Source: a virus
IMG/VR virus record: IMGVR_UViG_3300022555_000009
DNA: 64,000 nucleotides
Strand: one strand, 5' to 3'
The position numbers and the translations under genes were made by a program. Positions 15,061 through 62,629 of this stretch are shown here, one piece after another. The first letter of the stretch is position 1; each line of letters starts with the position of its first letter. The notes beneath the pieces are model-generated. The model was not told the origin of the DNA. It did not search any database and saw only the letters and a program-made list of their open reading frames with translations.

Positions 15061-15067
15061 ACTAATT
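15061..15067 (+). promoter_or_regulatory. ACTAATT putative phage late promoter
   Basis: Recurring motif just upstream of gene starts. Confidence 0.6.
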
Positions 15068-19076: not shown

Positions 19077-19107
19077 AATTTAATTAGAGATGTACTAATT
19101 TGGAACG

Positions 19108-19551
19108 ATGTACCAAAACCCCAGAACTCTATTTCAGCAGCGTATAAATGGTCTTCTAAAAGATCCGGAATGTTCTCCTATGTTTGAGGATATCTTTAAA
19201 TTGCTGCAGTTATATGCCTTAGAAAAATTAACGCCCAATAAGCCTGATGAGTCAAACTGGAAAACTCTGTTGCTTATGTACGAAGAACTAGGCCCATCTG
19301 GGATGGCTAAGCTCGTGTCCTTGGCTAAAGGCAAAGCCATAACTTTCCCTACAGAAGAAGAGTTTCAAGACTCTGTAATAACTACTTTAAGTTATTACTA
19401 TAAGGAAGTAGAGAATAAGAATTGGGACGAAATTAAAAAGATACTGAATCAGCCGGATCTGAATACTATTAAGTTCGGCATTCGCGTACGGAATTTCTCG
19501 ACGTTTATAAATGAACAGTTGTTGAAAAAATTCAAGAAGGTAGAAATATGA
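19108..19551 (+). CDS. Hypothetical protein, weak Mor/C activator-like motif
   Basis: ELGPSGMAKLVSLAKGKAITFP; ACTAATT lies 7 nt upstream of the ATG. Confidence 0.35.
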   Translation: MYQNPRTLFQQRINGLLKDPECSPMFEDIFKLLQLYALEKLTPNKPDESNWKTLLLMYEELGPSGMAKLVSLAKGKAITFPTEEEFQDSVITTLSYYYKEVENKNWDEIKKILNQPDLNTIKFGIRVRNFSTFINEQLLKKFKKVEI

Positions 19552-20024
19552 AAAACAAAGATTTAGAGGACGCAAAAAACATGTTAACTGCTACGTTGGT
19601 GGAATCCACTAAAACACCAACCTTATACGACCCTTCTACAGAAGTAGAGAGATCATTATCTAGCTTTCTTCAACATAGGCTGACCAAATTGCAGGAGGAC
19701 GCTTCAAGAGAAGAAACTATATGGGAGGCTATAACAGAGAGAGTCTCTGAGTTCAATCCTGATCAGCTAATGAGGCTTCTAAATATTCTACAAGAGAATA
19801 GTAACTCAGGCGTTGAAAAAATCCTGAGTCCTTTCATTCCGAGAGCAGGGGAAAGAATTCCCCTCTTGCCTGACAACTCAAAGAAGAGTAAGGATATCGT
19901 CGAAGAGACAATATTCAATGAGTCTGGTAAAGATTTGATGGAGGCCTTTTCCGAATTGAACTCCCTAGTGAGGGAAATGGCTAAGACAAGAGAAACTGAG
20001 GATATAAAGAAAGTACTGTCGTAA
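19548..20024 (+). CDS. Hypothetical helical protein
   Basis: 158-aa ORF with ATGA overlap. Confidence 0.5.
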   Translation: MKNKDLEDAKNMLTATLVESTKTPTLYDPSTEVERSLSSFLQHRLTKLQEDASREETIWEAITERVSEFNPDQLMRLLNILQENSNSGVEKILSPFIPRAGERIPLLPDNSKKSKDIVEETIFNESGKDLMEAFSELNSLVREMAKTRETEDIKKVLS

Positions 20025-20039
20025 AATATACTTTTCTGT

Positions 20040-20142
20040 ATCTTTAGAAAGGAGGTGATCCTAATCTAAAGGTGACGAAAATGTACAAAAATAAAAGGTA
20101 GGAATATGCTAAGAGGCTCTCTGAAAAGAGAGCCTCTTTTTT
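20040..20142 (+). ncRNA. Candidate small RNA with a 16-nt perfect complement of the 16S rRNA 3' end
   Basis: TATACT at 20027-20032; AGAAAGGAGGTGATCC at 20046-20061; terminator at 20111-20142; only tiny ORFs inside. Confidence 0.45.
20111..20142. terminator. Intrinsic terminator between convergent genes
   Basis: AAGAGGCTCTCT-GAAA-AGAGAGCCTCTT followed by a T run. Confidence 0.85.
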
Positions 20143-21958
20143 ATACACTACTCATCTCAAATATCATCTTCGCTGTATTACGATCTAAGTACTGTTGAGT
20201 ACCGAACTTTTTAGTTGTGAAGTCCTTATCTTCCAAATTCATATCTCGAACACAATCTAAGGAGTTATCAATAATTAGGAGATAGGTGTACACCGTCTTC
20301 TGTTGCCCAATACGATGAATACGAAATATAGATTGGTTATACTCTGTATAATTCCAGGTTCTATCAAAGTAAATAGCTATATTAGCCTCAACAATAGTCA
20401 CGCTGCTATTAAGAACCTGTATGCCCGCAATAAGAATATTGCGATCTTTCGAGGCTTGAAAATCTGCTATGATATCTGCCTTGAATTCATCCAGGGTCCT
20501 CCCCTTCGGTACTTTGACTTCCCCGTTGATGAGATAGGGCTGCCTCTTTTCTAAGATTACCGCCAGTTCTTGACCGACTGTAGGATGAGAGCACCATATA
20601 ATAATTTTTTCGTTAGGATGCTTTTCTAAGAGATCATCCAAAGCTCCCATCTTACAGTGATTAGAGAACTTAAATTTTTCGACCTTGCGAATAAGATTGT
20701 CTGGTAACTTTGTTTCATGGTTTAAAAGTAAGCTTGGATTATCGATGGCTAAGGAGAGATAGGGGAAAGAATTAAACACAGCTCGAGAGTCTATGCCTCC
20801 GTAAAATTCTTGTATGGCTCGTAGTTTTTCTACAACGATTCCTTGGTAGATTTCCTTCTGCTCATCAGATAGCTCCACATAAATCTTCTGTATGAAGTGC
20901 TCAGGCAACTCCAAAACGTCGTCAGCAAATCTTCGAGTAGACACTGATTTTACAATATCAGCCATCTCTATAAGTTTATTGGGTTTGAAGTAATTGATAG
21001 CATATAAAGAAAATCTATTGCCAGTATCTGCATACTCTTGTAGCCACTCGAAGTAAGAGAAATTCTTTACTAAGGCGGGATCTAAGAACTTCAGCTGTGA
21101 GTAGTACTTCTCTTCTCTGTCTGCAGGAGTTCCTGTTGCAATGTATCTATACTGAAAGAAGGGAGCGGCAAGGTGTATGGCCTTAGATTGCCTGGCTTGA
21201 GGATTCGCGATATTATGTGATTCGTCCAGGATAATGATGCCAACATCTCCCTGAAGCCAATCTCGAAAGGGAATAGGACACTTACGATAATTCTTTGAAT
21301 TGGATATCTCTTCCTGATACTCATCAGATACTAAGAGGAAAGATCGGTAGCTGCAGATGACAACATGAGATTTCACGTCGTCAAAAGGTCGCCGGTTTTT
21401 AATTCCCCCAACTCTAACATCTGATGAGTCATAGTTAGAAAATCTCCCCAGTTCTCTCTTGATATTGTAAGTGCCAGACCCTGAGGTAATGATAAGTACT
21501 TTTCTGACGTCTTTGTATTTACGGAGTAATTCAAGGGTGTTACATAGTATCCAGCTCTTCCCGGTACCTTGTTCATTAAAAAGAGCATATCGGTTGTAAC
21601 TGGAGCATTTAGATAGGTCTTCGAGTTGGAAATATTCATGCGGCGCCTTCCCCATAATGGGTTGTACTTTTAAATCATCTTTAGTAAAAGGAATTCTTTG
21701 AAATTCGATCGATCTCTTGGGAGTCTTCAATATCTCTATCTGAGACCATACTTCGTTTGTAATATAAAGTTCTTCTACGTCTCCCAAAGCGTCTATGACA
21801 GAGTCATAAACAGACGTCGGAATACACCACTGTTTACTCTTTGGTTCAAACTGACATCGATATCTCTTATATATAGTAAGATCTGTATCGAAGGCGTTGA
21901 CCGAGAATAATTGACTGGCATATATTTTATCGTCGCGAACTAGAATCTGAATGCTCAT
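20141..21958 (-). CDS. SNF2-family (SF2) helicase
   Basis: EQGTGKS, LDESH, ATGTP, QSIFRIHRIGQ. Confidence 0.9.
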   Translation of the reverse strand: MSIQILVRDDKIYASQLFSVNAFDTDLTIYKRYRCQFEPKSKQWCIPTSVYDSVIDALGDVEELYITNEVWSQIEILKTPKRSIEFQRIPFTKDDLKVQPIMGKAPHEYFQLEDLSKCSSYNRYALFNEQGTGKSWILCNTLELLRKYKDVRKVLIITSGSGTYNIKRELGRFSNYDSSDVRVGGIKNRRPFDDVKSHVVICSYRSFLLVSDEYQEEISNSKNYRKCPIPFRDWLQGDVGIIILDESHNIANPQARQSKAIHLAAPFFQYRYIATGTPADREEKYYSQLKFLDPALVKNFSYFEWLQEYADTGNRFSLYAINYFKPNKLIEMADIVKSVSTRRFADDVLELPEHFIQKIYVELSDEQKEIYQGIVVEKLRAIQEFYGGIDSRAVFNSFPYLSLAIDNPSLLLNHETKLPDNLIRKVEKFKFSNHCKMGALDDLLEKHPNEKIIIWCSHPTVGQELAVILEKRQPYLINGEVKVPKGRTLDEFKADIIADFQASKDRNILIAGIQVLNSSVTIVEANIAIYFDRTWNYTEYNQSIFRIHRIGQQKTVYTYLLIIDNSLDCVRDMNLEDKDFTTKKFGTQQYLDRNTAKMIFEMSSV

Positions 21959-22752
21959 TGGAGATTATGCTCCTTGAAATATTTTCTCCAGTCTACGCCG
22001 CCTTTATAGTACTCCCCCTCACGAGGATCTGCGATAACAATATCTACTGTCAAAGGAACACCCTTCTGCCAGGGTTCCATTCTTTCAAATATTTCTTTGA
22101 TCTTGGCTATCACCTCTTTCATTTCATTATCCCAGATAATGAAATCTACAGAGTCGTGAACCATACCTTGTATATAGGATTTAATATTATTGGCTTCTTT
22201 CCAGATTTGGAAATCGACCATGCAACCCATTACTTTACAAGCCTCATCATTTTGAATAGTCGTGTTGGCTAAGATATTATAAAGGCCCGCTACTTCTTTT
22301 CTATCCTCATCCTTACCTTTTAGCATAAGAACTGGCGTTCTGCGAATTGCTCCGTGGTAAGAACGAACATATCCCTGCTCCTCGCCTATCTGCTTATTAC
22401 GCTCAATGCGATCAGCAAGTCCTTTATATGTCTTAAAGAATTGGTCTCGAATATAATCAGCGACCGTAATGTAGCCCCACATTTTAGGTTCTACATCTTT
22501 ATACTTCTTAGCAATATTAAATTTCTTGTCGTAGAGCTGAAATTCCTCTATGAAGTCGTCGACCTGCTCTTGCGTCCATTTTACAGATAAAGTAGTCTCG
22601 GCGAATGTTATGGAAGCCATACCGAATAAAAATCCGAAGTTAACTGCTTTCGCCATTTGTCTGTATACATCGTAAATGTTATCTTTCTGGCGCAGTCTCT
22701 TAAATTCAATTTCTGTTATGGGCCTCATGACTTTTCTATGTGTGATTTTCAT
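21955..22752 (-). CDS. polA: Family A DNA polymerase, C-terminal fragment only (motifs B and C)
   Basis: RQMAKAVNFGFLFG (motif B), GYVRSYHGAIRR, NTTIQ, MVHDS (motif C); no motif A or exonuclease; likely start MKITH at 22752. Confidence 0.85.
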   Translation of the reverse strand: MKITHRKVMRPITEIEFKRLRQKDNIYDVYRQMAKAVNFGFLFGMASITFAETTLSVKWTQEQVDDFIEEFQLYDKKFNIAKKYKDVEPKMWGYITVADYIRDQFFKTYKGLADRIERNKQIGEEQGYVRSYHGAIRRTPVLMLKGKDEDRKEVAGLYNILANTTIQNDEACKVMGCMVDFQIWKEANNIKSYIQGMVHDSVDFIIWDNEMKEVIAKIKEIFERMEPWQKGVPLTVDIVIADPREGEYYKGGVDWRKYFKEHNLQ

Positions 22753-22793
22753 ATAGAGAATATATGAATCAGCCTTTGTATATATTGGTCCAT
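22753..22793. promoter_or_regulatory. Divergent pair of putative leaderless promoters (TATATT -10-like)
   Basis: TATATT 6 nt before the polA ATG (minus) and 7 nt before the sbcC ATG (plus); no SD on either side. Confidence 0.5.
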
Positions 22794-24881
22794 ATGACAA
22801 TACTAAAACTTGAGCTTGAAAACTTCATGAACATAGCTAAAGCCGACCTAGATTTTAAAAACGGCATAAATGTTATTTCGGGAAAAAATGGAGCAGGAAA
22901 AAGTGCTGTGCTTGAAGCTATCGCTTTCTGCATGGTTGAACGCAGAAGAGGGGACTCTTGGAAAGACTACATCAGGTCCGGAACAACAGGATTTAAAATC
23001 CACCTACTCATACAAAAGAGTGCGGCAAAAGCGGATGTCGTTGAATTCAGATATGAAGGTAATATAAAGCAAGGCGCGACCAGTAAGCAAATTATCTACC
23101 AGGGTAAGACCTATGTGAATTCGGAGTGCTCTGATTTTATAAAGGACACCTTTGACTCCGAAATGTTGGAGAATATTATTTTTACCCTACAGGATAGTAA
23201 ACCAGTCACTCACCAGACTCCTCTGGAGCGTAGGACCATATTTAAGAAAATATTCAATTCTAATTTCACAACCGCTGTTGAGAAAATTAAAGCGGATATT
23301 GAACAAAAAGAGGCTGAAAGCACAACCTTAGCATACGAGATAAATGCCATTAAATCCAAAACTTATCCTAAGGTGAGATTAGAGAGTATGGATCCTCAGG
23401 AATTGAGTGTCTATCTTACAGAGCAATCTAAGATAGAAGATAAGATGAAAGAATCTACGTTCGATAATGAATTTAATACCCTCTACCTGAGCAACCGAGA
23501 AGTCTTCGAAAAGTATGTGTTGCCTTCGTACCTAAATACTAGGGATGATGTAACGAAGCTTGAGAAAGAAATCGGAGATTCTCTAGTGAAAACAGAATTC
23601 TGCGAACGCGACATACGAGCTGGTGAAGCACGGCTTAATACTTTAGATATAAATATCAGTGGGCTCAAGCTCAAAATAGAAGCTCTTGAAAAATCTCTGG
23701 ACTCTGAGAGTGATTCTATAGGAGACCTTGAAAAAACTTTACAAGGTTTGAGAGCCCGTATCCGGGAAGCTCAGGTGCTTAGGTCCATCTCCAATACACA
23801 TTTGGAAACACATAAGAAAGGTAAGTGCGATGCTTGTGGGCAAGATTGTGATATAACAAGGATCCAGGAGTTAGAGACCGGGGTTAAAGTTATTTCTAGG
23901 CACATTCAGGATTTAATTTCTGATGAAAATCAGGTTACGGCCCAGCATACTTCCTGTGTAGCGCGTGTTAAAGAGATCGGTAAAACCTTAGATGACTTAA
24001 GGAATACTCTTTATCGTGAGAATGTGGGGGTCGAGAAAACAACAAAAAATCTTGAAAATAATCGACGTGAAATTACCCAGGATAGGCTATCTACGCAGAG
24101 TCTACAAACGATTTTACAAGAGAAAACAAGAGAATTATGTAGAATAGAACCCGAGGTCGATCAGAAAGAAACATGGCTCAAAGAGAACGAATCTCGATGG
24201 CAGGCCTTAGAAACTTCTGATCCAGCTATTTATGAAGAACAACTGAAAGGCATACGCGCTAAGATTCAGGATTATAATCAAAGATTGACATCTAGGTTAG
24301 AGCGAGAAGCTTTCAACAAGAAGCTAGATGAGCAGATTCAAAAAGATTCTGACCAGGTGCAAAAGCTATCTGAGAAGATAAATACTCTAGACTTAGAAAT
24401 CAAAAATCTCGAGTTCGTTAAGATGTTCTACGAGACTACGTTTCCCAATTTTATCAACTCAAAGGCCTGTACCTTACTGGAGTCTTATATGAATAACTTC
24501 CTCAGCACAACTAAGGAGGGATTCCAATTTAAACTTTTGTCCACGAAGAAAGGTATAGACTTTTTATATAAGGCAGACCCCGCGTCAGAATGGTTGAATG
24601 TTAAGTTAGCCTCTGGTTTTGAAACTTCGGTATCTAATCTAGCTTTTAAATGTGCCGTGGCTTTTTCATACCAGTCTGGACTTTTGGTTCTCGACGAGCC
24701 TGACGCATACAGTTCTGAGTCTAATAGCGAGCGGTTATTTGAAACCTTGACCAGTATTAACGACGGATTTGAGCAGATGATTATCATTACGCATAAGACT
24801 CAGGCTATGGAATTCTTAAAGGAGAACGGCGCCAATATTTATAAAGTTACTGATGGAGTCTTCGAGCAATCTGCTGACTAA
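22794..24881 (+). CDS. sbcC: SbcC/Rad50/gp46-like SMC ATPase
   Basis: GKNGAGKS Walker A, coiled coil with CDAC zinc hook, ASGFE signature, LVLDEP, ITH. Confidence 0.9.
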   Translation: MTILKLELENFMNIAKADLDFKNGINVISGKNGAGKSAVLEAIAFCMVERRRGDSWKDYIRSGTTGFKIHLLIQKSAAKADVVEFRYEGNIKQGATSKQIIYQGKTYVNSECSDFIKDTFDSEMLENIIFTLQDSKPVTHQTPLERRTIFKKIFNSNFTTAVEKIKADIEQKEAESTTLAYEINAIKSKTYPKVRLESMDPQELSVYLTEQSKIEDKMKESTFDNEFNTLYLSNREVFEKYVLPSYLNTRDDVTKLEKEIGDSLVKTEFCERDIRAGEARLNTLDINISGLKLKIEALEKSLDSESDSIGDLEKTLQGLRARIREAQVLRSISNTHLETHKKGKCDACGQDCDITRIQELETGVKVISRHIQDLISDENQVTAQHTSCVARVKEIGKTLDDLRNTLYRENVGVEKTTKNLENNRREITQDRLSTQSLQTILQEKTRELCRIEPEVDQKETWLKENESRWQALETSDPAIYEEQLKGIRAKIQDYNQRLTSRLEREAFNKKLDEQIQKDSDQVQKLSEKINTLDLEIKNLEFVKMFYETTFPNFINSKACTLLESYMNNFLSTTKEGFQFKLLSTKKGIDFLYKADPASEWLNVKLASGFETSVSNLAFKCAVAFSYQSGLLVLDEPDAYSSESNSERLFETLTSINDGFEQMIIITHKTQAMEFLKENGANIYKVTDGVFEQSAD

Positions 24882-26572: not shown

Positions 26573-26598
26573 ATTTATTTATAAGAGAGGTGTCGACA

Positions 26599-28461
26599 AT
26601 GGAGTTGAATGTAGCTGAGATGTTCGGTCCCGTGCTTCAGGGAGAAGGCAAGTCTCTCGGCGAGCCAGCTTTCTTTCTGAGGCTATCGAATTGTAATCTT
26701 ATGTCCATAGGGTATAATCGAGGAATTTCTCAGCCAAAGATATGGATGAATAAAGGTGGAGAGAAAAATATACAAGATGTAAAGCCTGATGATGTAATCT
26801 GGGCCACAAATGAAAACGGAAATCTCGTTGAAACAAAAGTTCTATCAGTATTCGAATACGACATCAAAGATAGAGTTGAGCTAATAGTCGAAGGGATAGA
26901 TCACCCTGTTTACTGCTCAGGGGAGCACCCCTGGCTAACAAATCAAGGGTGGAAGAGAGCTGACGAGCTTCTTAAAGACGATGAAATAATGCATTTTTCT
27001 AAGAAGCAGATTCAATCAGAAAGAATGAAAAAGTATAACCCTATTCATGATCCAGATACTATGAAAAGACATATTGAAAATACGAACTGGACAACTCAGG
27101 GAGAAAAAATTAAAGGTGATATTCAAAGAAGGAAAGCTGCAGACACTTATGTAGACGCCGTTACTTCCATGAGACGCAATAATCCAGAAAAGTATGCAGA
27201 GATGAATAAAAATACCTCAGTAAGAATGACAACTAATAATCCAATGTTTAATCAGGAAGTAGTTAAAAAAAGTAGAGGGACCCACCAGAATATAAATCAA
27301 TATTACCCCTTTATGTCCAAATCAGAGAAAGATTTTTCTAATATTGCTATGAAAATGGGGCTGCCAGTTAAGTATATTGGAAGATTTGATCTTCAGATTA
27401 AACACAAGAGTAAAACATACTACCCTGATTTTATAATTGAGGGGACAAATAGACTTCTGGAAATATACTACTCAAAAGGGAAATTATATTCTCACAGGAA
27501 TGAACAGTGGAAAAAAGAAAGGCTGGAGGCCTTCGAGGCTAATGGCTATTCCTGCACGTTTGTAAATTGTTCCGAGAGCAATATTAATGATATTAAAGAT
27601 TTAATATCCACCGAAATAAAAATGCAGAACGGGGTAAAGATTATATCTGTAACAAAAGTTAATCAATTTAAAACCCATTATGAGGGAGAAAAATCGTTAT
27701 CTAATTCCGATACCCAGTTCAATATTACCACTAAGCCGATGAGAGCAATTGATATTATGTGTTACCCTTATCATAATTTCATAGTTGATGGAATGGTTAC
27801 GCATAATTGCGGCGGTCATAACGGTGAGAAAGTTCGCGATGGGTCCGCTACTTGGTGGTGTGACTCTGAAAAGATTTGGCGAGAAAGTAAATCGTATACT
27901 CCTGGTGAAATTATTGAATATATTAAGGACGCGGGTGAGCTTGATAATATTAGATCTGGATCTACTCACTTAGTTATTACTGGCGGCGAGCCTCTCTTAC
28001 GCAGGAATATCGATCCGCTAAAACTACTTATTGAAATGCTGAGGTATGATAATCTCGCAGATCAGACATTCTATCCTTATATTGAGGTTGAGACGAACGG
28101 CACTTGCTCAACAGAAGACTTCTTGGATACGTATGTTGATCAGGTTAATTGTAGCCCTAAACTAGCTAATAGTGGTGTGCCTCGAGAGCAAAGAATTAAG
28201 CAGGATGCTATTGAGGAGATAAAGAATCATCTTAACTCTTGGTTCAAATTCGTTGTTAGCAAACCTGAAGATTGGAATGAGATCGAGAAAGATTTCTTGC
28301 CACTTATATTTAAGGATCAGATCATACTGATGCCTGCGGGAGCATCTCGCGAGGATCTTTTAGTTACGAGTCCTATTGTATGGGAGATGGCTTGCAAGCA
28401 TAACGTCAAGGCTACAACAAGACTGCAGACCATAACTTGGGATAAGAGAGTTGGCGTATGA
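26599..28461 (+). CDS. queE: 7-carboxy-7-deazaguanine synthase QueE (radical SAM), intein-containing
   Basis: EMFGPVLQGEG, FLRLSNCNL, ITGGEPL, EVETNG, CSPKL, FKFVV, LMP, RLQ. Confidence 0.88.
   Translation: MELNVAEMFGPVLQGEGKSLGEPAFFLRLSNCNLMSIGYNRGISQPKIWMNKGGEKNIQDVKPDDVIWATNENGNLVETKVLSVFEYDIKDRVELIVEGIDHPVYCSGEHPWLTNQGWKRADELLKDDEIMHFSKKQIQSERMKKYNPIHDPDTMKRHIENTNWTTQGEKIKGDIQRRKAADTYVDAVTSMRRNNPEKYAEMNKNTSVRMTTNNPMFNQEVVKKSRGTHQNINQYYPFMSKSEKDFSNIAMKMGLPVKYIGRFDLQIKHKSKTYYPDFIIEGTNRLLEIYYSKGKLYSHRNEQWKKERLEAFEANGYSCTFVNCSESNINDIKDLISTEIKMQNGVKIISVTKVNQFKTHYEGEKSLSNSDTQFNITTKPMRAIDIMCYPYHNFIVDGMVTHNCGGHNGEKVRDGSATWWCDSEKIWRESKSYTPGEIIEYIKDAGELDNIRSGSTHLVITGGEPLLRRNIDPLKLLIEMLRYDNLADQTFYPYIEVETNGTCSTEDFLDTYVDQVNCSPKLANSGVPREQRIKQDAIEEIKNHLNSWFKFVVSKPEDWNEIEKDFLPLIFKDQIILMPAGASREDLLVTSPIVWEMACKHNVKATTRLQTITWDKRVGV
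26704..27807 (+). mobile_element. Intein in QueE (368 aa, Ser1...His-Asn) with a Vsr/PD-(D/E)xK-like endonuclease
   Basis: Block B CSGEHPWLT; terminal HNFIVDGMVTHN/C; YYPDFII...LLEI; removal restores CNLM-C. Confidence 0.85.
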
Positions 28462-46623: not shown

Positions 46624-46657
46624 TCTTTAATCCCTTATTAAAGAATTAGTAAGAATT

Positions 46658-48141: not shown

Positions 48142-48686
48142 TATGTACCTCTATTATTTAGTGAGTTTTCGGTATTAGTCGAACCCACTTCAGCTATGAT
48201 ATTTTTCGATAACTGAGAAAGTACATATTGCTGTGTTTGCCACGACTCCAATAGTCGGCGTAGAAAAGACACCTTATGATCTGCTACTAGGACTTCATCA
48301 TTTAAAGCTCTATACTCCTCTTTGAATTCCTTGCGCACCAACATCTCTAGTTCTTTAGCTGCTACCCACTTCTGAGCTGACATATCAGATCGATTTTCTC
48401 TATGCCGTATGTCAATATACTTATCCGCATACCAGTCGTCGAATTCTTCCTTCTTCTTAGTATGGTCAATCTTGGCTACATTGTAAAGACTAAGAAGAGT
48501 TAAATATATTAGCTGATAATTGCATAATGCTGAATTGAGTTCGTGAAAAGAGATTTCTTTGTCGGATCCGATGTGAGAATACTCTTTCATCTTTTCGATT
48601 TGAGCATTGACAAAAATTATAAAAAGCTCCTCCGGAGGAGCTTTTTGATCAAGAATACTGGGCTGCTTCACTGGTCGCTGTTCCAT
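48141..48686 (-). CDS. UvsY-like recombination mediator
   Basis: Helical protein coupled (TAATG) to recA. Confidence 0.5.
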   Translation of the reverse strand: MEQRPVKQPSILDQKAPPEELFIIFVNAQIEKMKEYSHIGSDKEISFHELNSALCNYQLIYLTLLSLYNVAKIDHTKKKEEFDDWYADKYIDIRHRENRSDMSAQKWVAAKELEMLVRKEFKEEYRALNDEVLVADHKVSFLRRLLESWQTQQYVLSQLSKNIIAEVGSTNTENSLNNRGT

Positions 48687-50815
48687 TACTCATCTCCTAA
48701 GTCGTCCGATTCTTCGTCGGCTTCTAGAGAATCTAGTACTGTCGCTTTAGTAAATGATTCATTTACTATGCGTTTACAATCTTCAAATTTTTCTGGGTTG
48801 GCTTTGAGGTAAGTCAAAAGCGAATCCCTACCTTGTCCTTTCCAACCCCAAACATCGTTGGACATCCAACCTGCGCCAGCGACCTTTACAATACCTAGAT
48901 CCATGATGAACTGGATATACTCGTTATCGGGATCAAAACCAGTCTCATACTTTAGATCAAGTATGGCGGATCTCTTAGGAATACCCACTTTGTTTTTCAC
49001 ATTTCGAATCTTTACAACGTTACCTATAACAACTTTCTTTATAGCGATATCTTCCATCTTAGATACTTTAGCTCTCCAAGAAGCGTAGAACTTAATAGCT
49101 CTTCCACCAGGAGTAATATCTTCTGGCTTTCCATTAGGAGACCACCCACCTATATTATCGCGAACCTGATTAAGAAGAATAAGGGTAATATTGAATCGAG
49201 ATATATAAGGATTTAATTTACGTAGCCCCTGCGAAAATAGCTTAGCAGTGGCTCCAAAATTCGATTTCCCATATACATCTTCGACTTCAGCTGCTGAGGG
49301 TGTTGCTGCAATGGAATCATAAATAATGCATCCTATCTGGCCTGTCGCAACAAGCTCTTCCATAATAGTAAAAGCTTCCTCTCCGTTCATAGGCCTCACG
49401 AATATGAGATCTTCATCGGCAAGACTTAGTCCGGCTACCTGAGCGTACTTCTTTTCGAAAGAATGTTCCATATCAATAAAGAGTACCATCTTAGGTCCAC
49501 CATCTGTTCTTCGTTGGAACTGACCTCCAATATAGGAACTGATAACAGTATTGTGTGTAGGAATAAAATTATCTGTAATATACAGATGCTCTACATCGTC
49601 TACCATGATACATGAACATTCTTCTTTTCCCACATACTCGACGCTTTTGATATATTGATATCTAATTGTCTTCCTTGACTTCGAAAGAAATAAATCTTTT
49701 TTTCGCTCCAGAGCGAAAGGAGATCCCAACTTCTGTGGCAGCGCCAAGTGTAGCCTATACGATAGAGCTCCTTCTTTTTTTTCTCCTTTGTAGGTGTACG
49801 AAGTCTTTTTTACTTTTATCCTGGCTGTGCCTCCCAGGCTATGAACAATATCGACAACATCTTCAGCTAGCTTTTTGCTAGAGGAAGAGTATTCAATGCC
49901 GCTGTGTTTAACATCCTTGCCAATATGCCCATCGGTGTCCAGTAAACCCCGAAGCAAATTCATTCTATCCTCTATAGAAGACCATTTATAATCGAAGGGA
50001 ATAAACTTATCATAAGAATTTCTACCTTGAAGGTCTAGTTGTTTTAGTATTGCCGGAAGAGACCCCTTCGACTTTATTCTCCAATCATAGAAGGAGGCTT
50101 GAGACAACTCAAACCCCAAAATACTTTTTATCGAATCTATAAGTTGTTGATCTTCAGAGGAAAATTGAGTCATAGCCTGAGTCATGCATCCATCACCCAA
50201 AAGAAGTCCTAAAACATAAGGATCTAAGGGCAAGCTTTTTTTAAGGAACTCCTGAGGCTGAATCAATTCTAAATAATCTGCGTCAGGACTATTTATTTTC
50301 CCATATTTAGAAAGAGACTTATTGATATTTTTTGCCAGATCCTCTGTGGTCACTGTTTTTAAGCAGGAATCCTCAAAATTTTTAGATTTTCTAGCCCATC
50401 TTGTAGAATACTTTGAAGACTTAACGTTCCATAGATGATCTCTTCCCGCCCTTGTTGTAGATCCATCTCGAAGGGTTATCTCAAATACATCTTTTTCTCC
50501 CTGCGGAAATACACCCGTGACATTAGTTACTCTCCCTGAAGGAGTACAAACCTTATCACCTACCTTAAGATTTCCCATAAGGGTCCATCCGGTTGGTGTC
50601 AGTACCCTAGAACTATTAGGCTGTTCTTTGCCACCGCTCTCCGGCCCAAAGAATTCTATTATACGACCGAGAGGAACTCCTCCACCCATAATATAATTCA
50701 GCTGAGGAGAAGACATCACTAATCTCCTCACGAGACCAGCTTCCTCTACATTGGGTAGGGAGTCGGAGTAATCCTTCTTTAATTTTGTTAGAACTTTTGT
50801 TAGTTCCTTATTCAC
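48686..50815 (-). CDS. recA: RecA recombinase, intein-containing
   Basis: GGVPLGRIIEFFGPESGGK/T, FIDMEH, YDSIAA, NQVRD, TPGGRAIKFYAS, KNKVG. Confidence 0.95.
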   Translation of the reverse strand: MNKELTKVLTKLKKDYSDSLPNVEEAGLVRRLVMSSPQLNYIMGGGVPLGRIIEFFGPESGGKEQPNSSRVLTPTGWTLMGNLKVGDKVCTPSGRVTNVTGVFPQGEKDVFEITLRDGSTTRAGRDHLWNVKSSKYSTRWARKSKNFEDSCLKTVTTEDLAKNINKSLSKYGKINSPDADYLELIQPQEFLKKSLPLDPYVLGLLLGDGCMTQAMTQFSSEDQQLIDSIKSILGFELSQASFYDWRIKSKGSLPAILKQLDLQGRNSYDKFIPFDYKWSSIEDRMNLLRGLLDTDGHIGKDVKHSGIEYSSSSKKLAEDVVDIVHSLGGTARIKVKKTSYTYKGEKKEGALSYRLHLALPQKLGSPFALERKKDLFLSKSRKTIRYQYIKSVEYVGKEECSCIMVDDVEHLYITDNFIPTHNTVISSYIGGQFQRRTDGGPKMVLFIDMEHSFEKKYAQVAGLSLADEDLIFVRPMNGEEAFTIMEELVATGQIGCIIYDSIAATPSAAEVEDVYGKSNFGATAKLFSQGLRKLNPYISRFNITLILLNQVRDNIGGWSPNGKPEDITPGGRAIKFYASWRAKVSKMEDIAIKKVVIGNVVKIRNVKNKVGIPKRSAILDLKYETGFDPDNEYIQFIMDLGIVKVAGAGWMSNDVWGWKGQGRDSLLTYLKANPEKFEDCKRIVNESFTKATVLDSLEADEESDDLGDE
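49550..50626 (-). mobile_element. Class-3-type LAGLIDADG intein (359 aa) in the RecA P-loop, first residue Glu
   Basis: EQPNSSRVLTPTGW; DHLW; LGLLLGDG and LRGLLDTDG; ECSCIMV; IPTHN/T. Confidence 0.9.
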
Positions 50816-60928: not shown

Positions 60929-62629
60929 TTAATTAGTCTTTGTAAAAGTATATACTATGGTCCCACAGTCCCATACTCTATCGTATCCATTGATTTGCAT
61001 ATTCTCCCATTCTGTTTTTTTAAAATCGAAGTTAGGCAGTACCTTCTTTAACTTGTGTTTCTGAAAGGTTAGTCTGTGAATAAGTTCCTTGTAATCTTTC
61101 GTATAGTACATGCCAGGAGAATTCGTGTGAGAATATTCGAACCCTAAATTAAAAGTACTCTTACCATTAAAAATTCTTTTGTCAGTATACGATAGAACTG
61201 TACTACCTAGTGGTAGCGATTTTACAACTTCGTTCCACAACTTTGATATACCGCCGACTACTACTGTGTTCAAAGAGCAAGCAAATCTAGTTAACTCATA
61301 CGTATTTTTCTTAAATCTATTTTTAGACACGACTATGTGAGCCACTAAATTTCCTTCTTTGTCTTTTAGACCATACCTCATAGAACCTTGGGCGTACCCT
61401 TGAATGTGATTAACTTCAAAAAAAGATCTGCTATCAGCAGGGGACACTTGAACTATAGAGCATGATCTAGCTCCTACTTTTCTGTCACATATTCCTAATT
61501 TATTTTTTATGATGGACTTAACTACATCAGATTTATTGATCCACTCGGAGTCCCAAAAATGTAGTAAAGTAATATTCTGAGCTTCACAAAGACTAGTTTT
61601 ATTGAAATGATATTGTGTTCCTCTCTGGCCCCTAATTTCTGAGTGCCAGTATATTTCATTCAATTCAATAGCTAAGTTCCTATCTGGTAAGTATATATCT
61701 AATTCAAGCGGGGATATAATTCTACGGGAATTCTCTACGATTCTTTCATTAGGCAGTACTTCTTTGAGCCAAGCGACGATTTCCTTTTCTATGATCCCTT
61801 GCGAGCCGGGGGGATAACACGTTGGACACCGGGGATACTTTCCATTAGCTAAGTAATCTTCAAAGGCAGATCCACAAGTATTACATTGAAACTTGTAATA
61901 CTTAACCTGTCCTTCCGTATCTACAGTAGAGATATATTCCTCTTGACTGAATAAAGGAGTAGCTTTTGTTATTCTTTCTGAAGACATCAGTTTACTCCAG
62001 AAATCCTGTCTCTTAGTCTTAAGAACTTTTTGCCAGATATCCGGACCATAAATGCTACATTCATTGCCATACTTTATTAGATTGGTTGCTTTAGCCTTCT
62101 CATGAGGCTTATTTCCGTGGGCACTAAAAGAAGTAATTTGAGCTTTTTGCGCGGCCTCAGACCTTACTTGATGAACTTTATCACCATACTTCTCTTCCCA
62201 CTTCTTCCTAATATAATTTTTATCTTGAAAGATATTATCTACGCCAAATCTTTCCTTTGTAGTTTTCCTTATTTTAGCTTGAATCTCTGCAGATTGGGCA
62301 GGCCTTTCTACTCCGTATCTTTCTAGGTTTGTTTTGGCTACTTTGCTTGAGGTTCCCTTAGCTTTGCAAGAGTTAGAACAGAACTCTCTATATCCTTCTT
62401 TAAAAGATATAAACTTAACGGAGGAGCCACATATCATGCAAGTCGGCTTTGTAGTAAAATTATGGGATAATAAATATAACTTCTCGGATGTTGATCCTAC
62501 TGTGGGACACTCGGTATTAACAATATCTAGCCACTCTTTTCTGTTTTTTAAAAACGTAGGAAAAGCAGGATTGAGTAGTCCGTTTGATCTGAACATCCCT
62601 AGTTTTTTTAGTTCTTCCAGTAGCACCAT
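60929..62629 (-). CDS. Free-standing Hef-like/Vsr-type homing endonuclease
   Basis: CMIC/FCSNSC, TNLERYG-type repeats, ELDIYLP...AIELNEIYWHS, NHIQG, GYDRVWDCG. Confidence 0.75.
   Translation of the reverse strand: MVLLEELKKLGMFRSNGLLNPAFPTFLKNRKEWLDIVNTECPTVGSTSEKLYLLSHNFTTKPTCMICGSSVKFISFKEGYREFCSNSCKAKGTSSKVAKTNLERYGVERPAQSAEIQAKIRKTTKERFGVDNIFQDKNYIRKKWEEKYGDKVHQVRSEAAQKAQITSFSAHGNKPHEKAKATNLIKYGNECSIYGPDIWQKVLKTKRQDFWSKLMSSERITKATPLFSQEEYISTVDTEGQVKYYKFQCNTCGSAFEDYLANGKYPRCPTCYPPGSQGIIEKEIVAWLKEVLPNERIVENSRRIISPLELDIYLPDRNLAIELNEIYWHSEIRGQRGTQYHFNKTSLCEAQNITLLHFWDSEWINKSDVVKSIIKNKLGICDRKVGARSCSIVQVSPADSRSFFEVNHIQGYAQGSMRYGLKDKEGNLVAHIVVSKNRFKKNTYELTRFACSLNTVVVGGISKLWNEVVKSLPLGSTVLSYTDKRIFNGKSTFNLGFEYSHTNSPGMYYTKDYKELIHRLTFQKHKLKKVLPNFDFKKTEWENMQINGYDRVWDCGTIVYTFTKTN

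Follow-up and report, generated by a model that had tools for sequence, protein, structure and literature searches.

An orphan super-Shine-Dalgarno site in a conserved non-coding element between convergent genes of an uncultured phage

Between two convergent genes of an uncultured large tailed phage lies a conserved non-coding element that carries a 16-nt perfect complement of the 16S rRNA 3' tail (AGAAAGGAGGTGATCC, 20046-20061, + strand), with no start codon at initiating distance. We call such a site an orphan super-Shine-Dalgarno (super-SD) and use "the window" for the whole stretch of 64,000 nucleotides that was analyzed; the longest known contig of the phage is about 170 kb. The element as a whole (hairpin, linker, and terminator) spans 20025-20144 (+), and its conservation leads us to regard it as real and as being under purifying selection across diverged phages. 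As to its function, we tentatively suggest, by analogy with the STAB-SD stabilizers, that the tip of its hairpin docks a 30S subunit without initiation, parking the subunit and stabilizing the 3' tail of the RNA. As a phage device, the orphan super-SD module would be one so far undescribed.

The site and its transcription unit

The site is the exact reverse complement of the common 16S end GGAUCACCUCCUUUCU, and the initial annotation was right about both its coordinates and its sequence. It occurs once in the window, where the runner-up carries 3 mismatches, and a 16-mer is expected to match by chance about 128,000/4^16 = 3e-5 times per window. Its length, described early on as far beyond that of any other ribosome-binding site in the window, does stand apart: the other perfect complements of the 16S tail measure at most 8 nt before a gene and at most 10 nt anywhere. 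Reading on from the last gene, the order is TAA (20022-24), aatatacttttctgtatcttt, AGAAAGGAGGTGATCC, taATCTAAaggtgacgaaaATGTACaaaaataaaaggtAGGAATATG, ct, and the terminator, with the super-SD 22 nt past the stop codon of that gene and 50 nt ahead of the terminator. At initiating distance after 20046-20061, ATG is absent, as had been claimed, and so are GTG and TTG. At start-codon distance, 8 nt past GGAGG, stands AUC-UAA (20064-20069, +); its first four bases, AUCU, are the hallmark of a wider class of sites (discussed below) and here lie within the 3' strand of the main stem of the hairpin. The spacing in the window is AGAAAGGAGGUGAUCC-UA-AUCU, i.e., N = 2 (UA), then AUCU, hairpin, and terminator. 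The next ATG past the super-SD, at 20081, is preceded by a second SD-like sequence, AAGG(U)G, and opens only MYKNKR*, again as first reported.

The element occupies a gap of 116 nt, with a 158-aa gene (19548-20024, +) on one side and, on the other, an SNF2-family helicase gene (20141-21958, -), the latter with a PHROG DNA helicase match (5e-67) and, on public copies, the Pfam domains SNF2-rel_dom and Helicase_C. At its downstream end sits an intrinsic terminator (20111-20144, +) with a 12-bp stem, a GAAA loop, and U6, the stop codon of the helicase gene lying within the T-run. The terminator hairpin (20111-20138) has 6 GC pairs in its stem, in keeping with the strong terminator of the initial annotation, and the T-run is found on the + strand only. 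Because the U-run lies solely on that strand, the SD-sense strand is the one whose transcript ends here.

Upstream, the 158-aa gene and a 147-aa gene are joined by an ATGA overlap into an operon (19108-20024, +, from the ORF list). The pair is likewise called on public contigs, and the operon closes the structural gene block; tail genes lie upstream of the element and replication genes on the other strand. The motif ACTAATT occurs in 17 copies in the window, mostly 4-45 nt ahead of start codons (e.g., at 15061, 17122, 19094, 24877, 33713, and 37604 on the + strand and at 46650, 59548, and 60937 on the - strand), and is likely a phage-specific promoter or regulatory box. One promoter-like copy (19094-19100, +) is located 7 nt before the ATG at 19108 and is conserved in the relative L001, 8 nt before the homologous ATG. 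With ACTAATT 4-8 nt from their ATG, the mRNAs at 19108, 37615, and 60926 may be leaderless. Directly ahead of the element, no conserved ACTAATT was found in the window or its relatives. The element had first been read as a separate RNA gene of ~100 nt, preceded by TATACT. This hexamer does occur (20027-20032); it lacks a -35 partner, however, and the relatives do not keep it, so that a promoter role finds no backing. Since TATACT is not conserved and ACTAATT is conserved before the upstream operon, the element reads as a 3'UTR and not as a gene of its own. Most likely, a single transcript runs from ACTAATT through 19108-20024 and the element to the terminator, making the element the operon's 3'UTR.

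Several other genes of this phage and its relatives deserve a short mention. The SNF2 helicase gene is coupled to a stand-alone gene (21955-22800, -) whose product is confined to the C-terminal part of a family A DNA polymerase (265-281 aa); the same short PolA gene also precedes the helicase in L001, L157, and L159 (Pfam DNA_pol_A, 258-273 aa). L157, a helicase relative, carries an IS605 OrfB-family gene (OrfB_IS605, Cas12f1-like). Elsewhere in the window are a transposase (phrog_506; 37615-38862, +), a 566-aa homing/HNH endonuclease (60929-62629, -), a protein with a QueE-like radical-SAM C-terminal part (26590-28461, +) that hints at 7-deazaguanine metabolism, and a 709-aa protein (48686-50815, -) matching both ATPase/terminase-like and UvsX/RecA-like families.

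Conservation, predicted fold, and computed pairing

Three lineages were compared, namely the window and two relatives, L001 and L252, that were found through a large protein collection and contig look-ups. Identity to the window is 70% for the helicase and 66% for the 158-aa homologue of L001, and 71% for the 158-aa homologue of L252. Both relatives retain the element, again placed between the two convergent genes. Identity at third codon positions of the flanking genes is no more than 36-46%; the core of the element, from GAAAGG to GUAC, is about 90% identical across the lineages. Two blocks of the linker, AAAUGUAC (20079-20086, +) and AGGAAUAUG (20100-20108, +), are invariant in all three, and the window's version of the element recurs identically in at least 8 independent assemblies. 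L252 shows one change inside the SD core, GGAGG to GGGGG, which keeps the pairing with CCUCC via a G-U wobble and removes the GGA motif. The terminator, whose conservation had been proposed as a check, keeps its place and its U-run in L001 and L252, but the sequence of its hairpin differs by lineage.

Further out, the element is absent from helicase relatives at 47-53% identity (L003, L157, L158, and L159) and from L253, whose 158-aa homologue is 47% identical. In the large protein collection, the 158-aa protein has no homologues outside the window's lineage, protein-seeded IMG/VR searches with the helicase and the 158-aa protein returned no relatives, and BLAST of the locus and of the class members against cultured phages gave nothing close. 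The initial annotation had voiced two doubts, namely that the motif might be absent in relatives or might be a captured rrn fragment. Neither holds: L001 and L252 keep the element, and by Rfam search there is no SSU rRNA, 16S, or ITS similarity beyond the 3' tail, the sequence departing from 16S right past GATCC. No tRNA or Rfam family was found in the element region at gathering score, and weak Rfam matches to Phe-leader and PyrR reflect the terminator only. A third doubt, that the site might precede a conserved peptide, is likewise answered. The frames opened by the conserved AUG encode MYKNKR* (6 aa), MYNGKEYDTGGS* (12 aa), and, in L252, at least 50 codons; these peptides share only MY, and no conserved reading frame lies behind the element.

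The predicted fold of 20025-20144 has an energy of -40.7 kcal/mol (z = -6.2). It contains a bulged hairpin (20029-20085, +) that is built up from an outer stem (20029-36/20077-85), a main stem (20039-48/20065-74), and a tip stem (20050-53/20059-62) carrying the pentaloop GGUGA (20054-58). Single-sequence folds of the window, L001, and L252 each yield this same hairpin with the super-SD at its tip. The main stem pairs YCUUUAGA with UCUAARGG and closes a 2x2 A-rich internal loop; in all three lineages, the tip stem is a three- to four-pair GGA/UCC helix below the GGUGA loop. Portions of the site itself, GGA/UCC and AGA/UCU, are thus paired inside the hairpin. The consensus fold of the three lineages retains the hairpin with wobble or one-sided changes only, the number of true compensatory pairs being 0.

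The computed duplex between the window site and the 16S tail amounts to -29.8 kcal/mol, for which the common 16S tail is assumed. Opening the hairpin costs 9 to 13.5 kcal/mol in the three lineages. With the same assumed tail, this leaves a net pairing of -16.4 kcal/mol for the window and a range of -16 to -21 kcal/mol over the three. For the SD duplexes of the window genes (n = 46), the median is -7.1 and the strongest -14.0 kcal/mol, and the net pairing of the element exceeds that of every real ribosome-binding site of the window.

Known systems and a wider class of viral sites

The closest comparison, drawn from the outset, is with the STAB-SD of Bacillus thuringiensis cry3A, which binds the 30S subunit without initiation and blocks RNase J1 (Agaisse & Lereclus 1996; Mathy et al. 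2007; reviewed in PMC4113751). The element resembles it in being an SD-like complement of the 16S 3' end that would not initiate, as it lacks a start codon at initiating distance. The description as a STAB-SD-like, non-initiating, and extreme anti-SD complement is well supported by AUC-UAA 8 nt past GGAGG and by the computed duplex energy. The location, on the other hand, is different: a STAB-SD lies in the 5'UTR and protects a long downstream mRNA, whereas the element belongs to a 3'UTR in which no more than about 90 nt and a terminator follow. Its complement is also longer (16 nt), sits on a conserved hairpin, and is followed by AUCU. A polypurine 5' stabilizer in Bacillus phage SP82 was reportedly described by Hue and co-workers in 1995.

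A second system that comes to mind is the CC2171 sRNA of Caulobacter and other Alphaproteobacteria (Rfam RF01867), a small RNA that is bounded by a terminator and carries an orphan super-SD and a mini GG/CC tip stem. The RF01867 consensus starts with GAAAGGAGGUGAUCCAGUGUCUC; its opening reads GAAAGGAGGUGAUCC-AGUG-UCUC, and it has a terminator at its end. The window element also shows GAAAGGAGGUGAUCC followed by UCU(C) a few nucleotides later. CC2171, however, is a stand-alone chromosomal sRNA of about 159 nt, whereas the element is part of a phage 3'UTR. The CC2171 RNA is expressed and has been validated by Northern blot in Methylorubrum, its function being not known (bioRxiv 10.1101/2022.01.24.477521). 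The RF01867 covariance model gave no match for the window element at gathering, and none at E <= 10 on 19950-20220; two other class members match weakly (24-26 bits, threshold 75). The element belongs neither to the STAB-SD stabilizers nor to CC2171.

Ribosome-binding sites without a product are known from other settings as well. Start-stops bind ribosomes in Escherichia coli (bioRxiv 10.1101/520783), silent upstream ribosome-binding sites occlude a nearby one, and unproductive ribosome binding can regulate (bioRxiv 10.1101/520783; PMC13285730). Like the element, these are binding sites that yield no product, and they act through ribosome occupancy. A start-stop has a start codon, though, whereas the element has AUC at the start position, which sets it apart from such minimal ORFs, and it has no downstream gene to occlude. 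In the icaR 3'UTR of Staphylococcus aureus (PMC3868564), an anti-SD motif pairs with the SD in the transcript's own 5' region. The likeness lies in the 3'UTR location and the SD/anti-SD complementarity; icaR is the mirror image, with the anti-SD side in icaR and the SD side in the element.

The recurrence of the motif in intergenic positions with a trailing ATCT, which had been suggested as a check, was followed up in an unbiased sample of AAAGGAGGTGATCC in IMG/VR viral contigs (118 sites, 104 families). ATCT stands within 0-4 nt after AAAGGAGGTGATCC in 33 of the 104 families versus 2.1 expected (P about 2e-30); ATG, GTG, or TTG stands there in 30 of the 104. ATCT is present in 18 of the 26 families that have no start codon and are not contained in a long frame. 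We define the class here as GGAGGUGAUCC with no start codon within 0-4 nt, AUCU within 0-4 nt, and a hairpin or terminator, a definition under which the window element falls. AUCU behind a super-SD recurs in many unrelated phages, with U-AUCU-C(C) as the class consensus after the site. AUC does not serve as a start codon: across the class the ATC frame is not open, and with 50 codons reached at 12 of 117 sites it ranks below both other frames.

Class members are found in three settings: immediately ahead of a terminator, 20-30 nt ahead of another SD, of the ordinary kind, that leads a late gene (such as those for portal, large terminase, head protease, major tail protein, and endolysin), and within RNAs closed by long covarying stems. 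Members of the leader type, lying about 20-30 nt before a second SD and start, resemble occluding ribosome-binding sites. The terminators of the class and the downstream genes with SD and start all sit on the SD-sense strand. U-AUCU-CC is complementary to GGAGGUG and would form a self-hairpin. Another possible partner is the 790 loop of 16S (helix 24), whose bases AGAUA we take to be complementary to UAUCU. At the class sites, the flanking bases give no extension of the complementarity to the 790 loop, and the site flanks weakly favor the self-hairpin reading.

Two apparent signatures were discarded. ATC-TAA as an enriched start-stop had emerged from pattern scans of IMG/VR, but in the ATCT scan TAA/AA is not enriched once ATCT is given. 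AATCTAARGG, also present in L004, L005, and L008, looked like a shared signature, but about 1.5 chance matches are expected among thousands of ATCT-type sites. In the window's lineage, this stretch is the 3' strand of the hairpin; two matches in bacterial genomes are coding and fall in a cyclophilin GGDP motif.

The survey also brought up several groups that are of interest in themselves. The cultured jumbo phage FLC1-1B of Ralstonia (L262, LC819005) has a class member between gp176 and gp175, in a gap of 436 nt without annotation (locus 443-878); it reads TAAAGGAGGTGATCC-TT-ATCTGG followed by a GC-rich hairpin and is a possible tractable model for the class. True start-stops, GGAGGTGATCC-gc-ATG-TAA, are found in prophage-like IMG/VR contigs (L108, L110, L113, L119, L124, and L132), where they precede a second SD and gene ATG in a natural tandem arrangement of ribosome-binding sites. 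Two structured RNA families of about 100-130 nt each, one comprising L026, L032, L072, L085, and L089 and the other L024, L038, L042, L049, L078, L081, and L095, wrap long covarying closing stems around an orphan super-SD and AUCUAA module, and neither has an Rfam match at gathering score. A distinct, widespread sub-family has the super-SD, then AUCUUGAC, and then a hairpin with covarying stems and the conserved loop GAAUAGA. It falls into two groups (L267, L275, L287, L288, L291, L303, L308, L311, L313, L344, and L349; and L277, L332, L339, and L352), with GCAG/CUGC stems in one group and GCGG/CCGC stems in the other. Finally, L436 has a weak Rfam GP20-a match (1987-2080; 30 bits, threshold 47) about 200 nt downstream of its orphan super-SD module, with a gene downstream.

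Possible roles of the element

From the sequence and its conservation, together with the predicted fold, the non-coding nature, and the strength of the computed pairing, we infer the functional steps of a possible mechanism, in which STAB-SD-like binding of the 30S subunit would be the most economical explanation. The tip of the element would pair with the anti-SD tail of a 30S subunit that is either free or part of a ribosome fresh from termination 22 nt upstream. No initiation could ensue because the P-site position would hold AUC-UAA and no start codon. By analogy with STAB-SD, the parked subunit would then act as a roadblock to exonucleases. The transcript end would be protected, and a stable ribosome-bound stub of about 95 nt may be left when the body of the mRNA decays. 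Any titration of ribosomes would be a by-product of the abundance of this stub. We lean toward this reading with due reserve. Counting against it are the short stretch left to protect beyond the site (about 90 nt and a terminator), the part of the site that is paired within the hairpin, and the two invariant linker blocks, for which the mechanism does not account.

The alternative that survives best holds that the element is a 3'-end hairpin working independently of ribosomes, its purine tract being kept for pairing in cis or for an RNA-binding protein, and its likeness to an SD being incidental. Candidate partners are the pyrimidine arm and U-run of the terminator, AUCU-type strands, and a phage or host protein. 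The site is, after all, embedded in a conserved hairpin, and the complementarity of the class consensus to GGAGGUG suggests self-sequestration. Moreover, the 3' arm of the terminator with its U-run, CCUCUUUUUU in the window and CCUCCUUUUUU in L252, can in either case pair with the purine tract. Against this, the complement to 16S spans all 16 nt, although pairing in cis would not call for GAUCC and AGAAA, and the sole substitution in the core preserves the pairing with rRNA. A CsrA-type protein would look for the GGA motif at the tip, which is lost in L252. On balance, we think a ribosome-independent role unlikely, though worth keeping in mind.

The initial annotation had itself put forward a decoy acting in trans: an RNA, taken here to accumulate late, would titrate the anti-SD tails of 30S subunits, shut down SD-dependent host translation, and spare leaderless phage mRNAs. 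The extreme computed pairing strength would suit such a role, as would the place of the element at the end of a probably abundant late transcript. Several phage genes with ACTAATT 4-8 nt before their ATG may be leaderless, and terminator-ended orphan super-SD units recur in many phages. However, a genuine SD leads 32 of the 46 window genes (about 70%), compared to 9 of 46 control positions, and a block would strike most of the phage's own genes. A global decoy that spares the phage is unlikely for this reason. It would also have to match the number of ribosomes, yet a strong promoter of its own is not evident (TATACT is not conserved) and the window holds one copy of the element. We consider this reading rather improbable. 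A bolder version extends to the whole class, in which GGAGGUGAUCC, 0-4 nt, and UAUCU would form a widespread phage clamp on the anti-SD tail of the 30S subunit, perhaps also on the 790 loop, and the 3'UTR-derived RNA of the window would sequester 30S subunits late; this is a speculative proposal to which we give still less credence.

Less probable again is a real translation start, be it a start-stop at AUC-UAA or a micro-ORF (MY...) that begins with the AUG of 20081 and would serve as a leader or regulator. AUC does lie exactly at the place of a start codon, 8 nt past GGAGG, and AAAUGUAC is invariant, with the second SD-like AAGG(U)G ahead. In other phages this super-SD is followed by ATG-TAA start-stops, and binding of ribosomes to start-stops has been seen in E. 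coli (bioRxiv 10.1101/520783). The peptides, however, are not conserved (from MYKNKR* and MYNGKEYDTGGS* to a frame of 50 or more codons in L252), across the class both other frames are more open than the ATC frame, TAA is not enriched after ATCT, and there is no downstream gene to regulate. The micro-ORF reading is weak, as are the two that follow.

It is very unlikely that the - strand is the functional one, with read-through transcripts of the helicase gene carrying GGAUCACCUCCUUUCU as a mimic of the 16S tail that masks the SDs of mRNAs. The terminator has no U-run on that strand, so helicase transcripts probably do read through the element, and the anti-SD motif in the icaR 3'UTR (PMC3868564) offers a precedent. 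The terminators and downstream SD-start genes of the class nonetheless sit on the SD-sense strand, and all three lineages keep the terminator U-run there. For practical purposes, three further origins can be dismissed: coincidence, an artefact of assembly or priming (a universal 16S reverse primer contains GGAGGTGATCC), and capture of a piece of an rRNA operon. The grounds are the 3e-5 chance matches expected, the identical copies in at least 8 assemblies, the conservation in two diverged relatives, the departure from 16S after GATCC, and the absence of an SSU rRNA or other Rfam match.

In short, known non-initiating SDs amount to a handful of Gram-positive 5'UTRs, and one alphaproteobacterial sRNA also starts in this way. 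In phage contigs, a perfect 14-nt complement of the anti-SD is an AUCU orphan as often as it is a real ribosome-binding site, and the super-SD module is short and portable. If the docking of 30S subunits holds true, phages would control RNA stability or the availability of ribosomes through a common layer that lacks annotation. The module would also explain the recurrent calls of a "missing gene" behind strong ribosome-binding sites in phage annotation.
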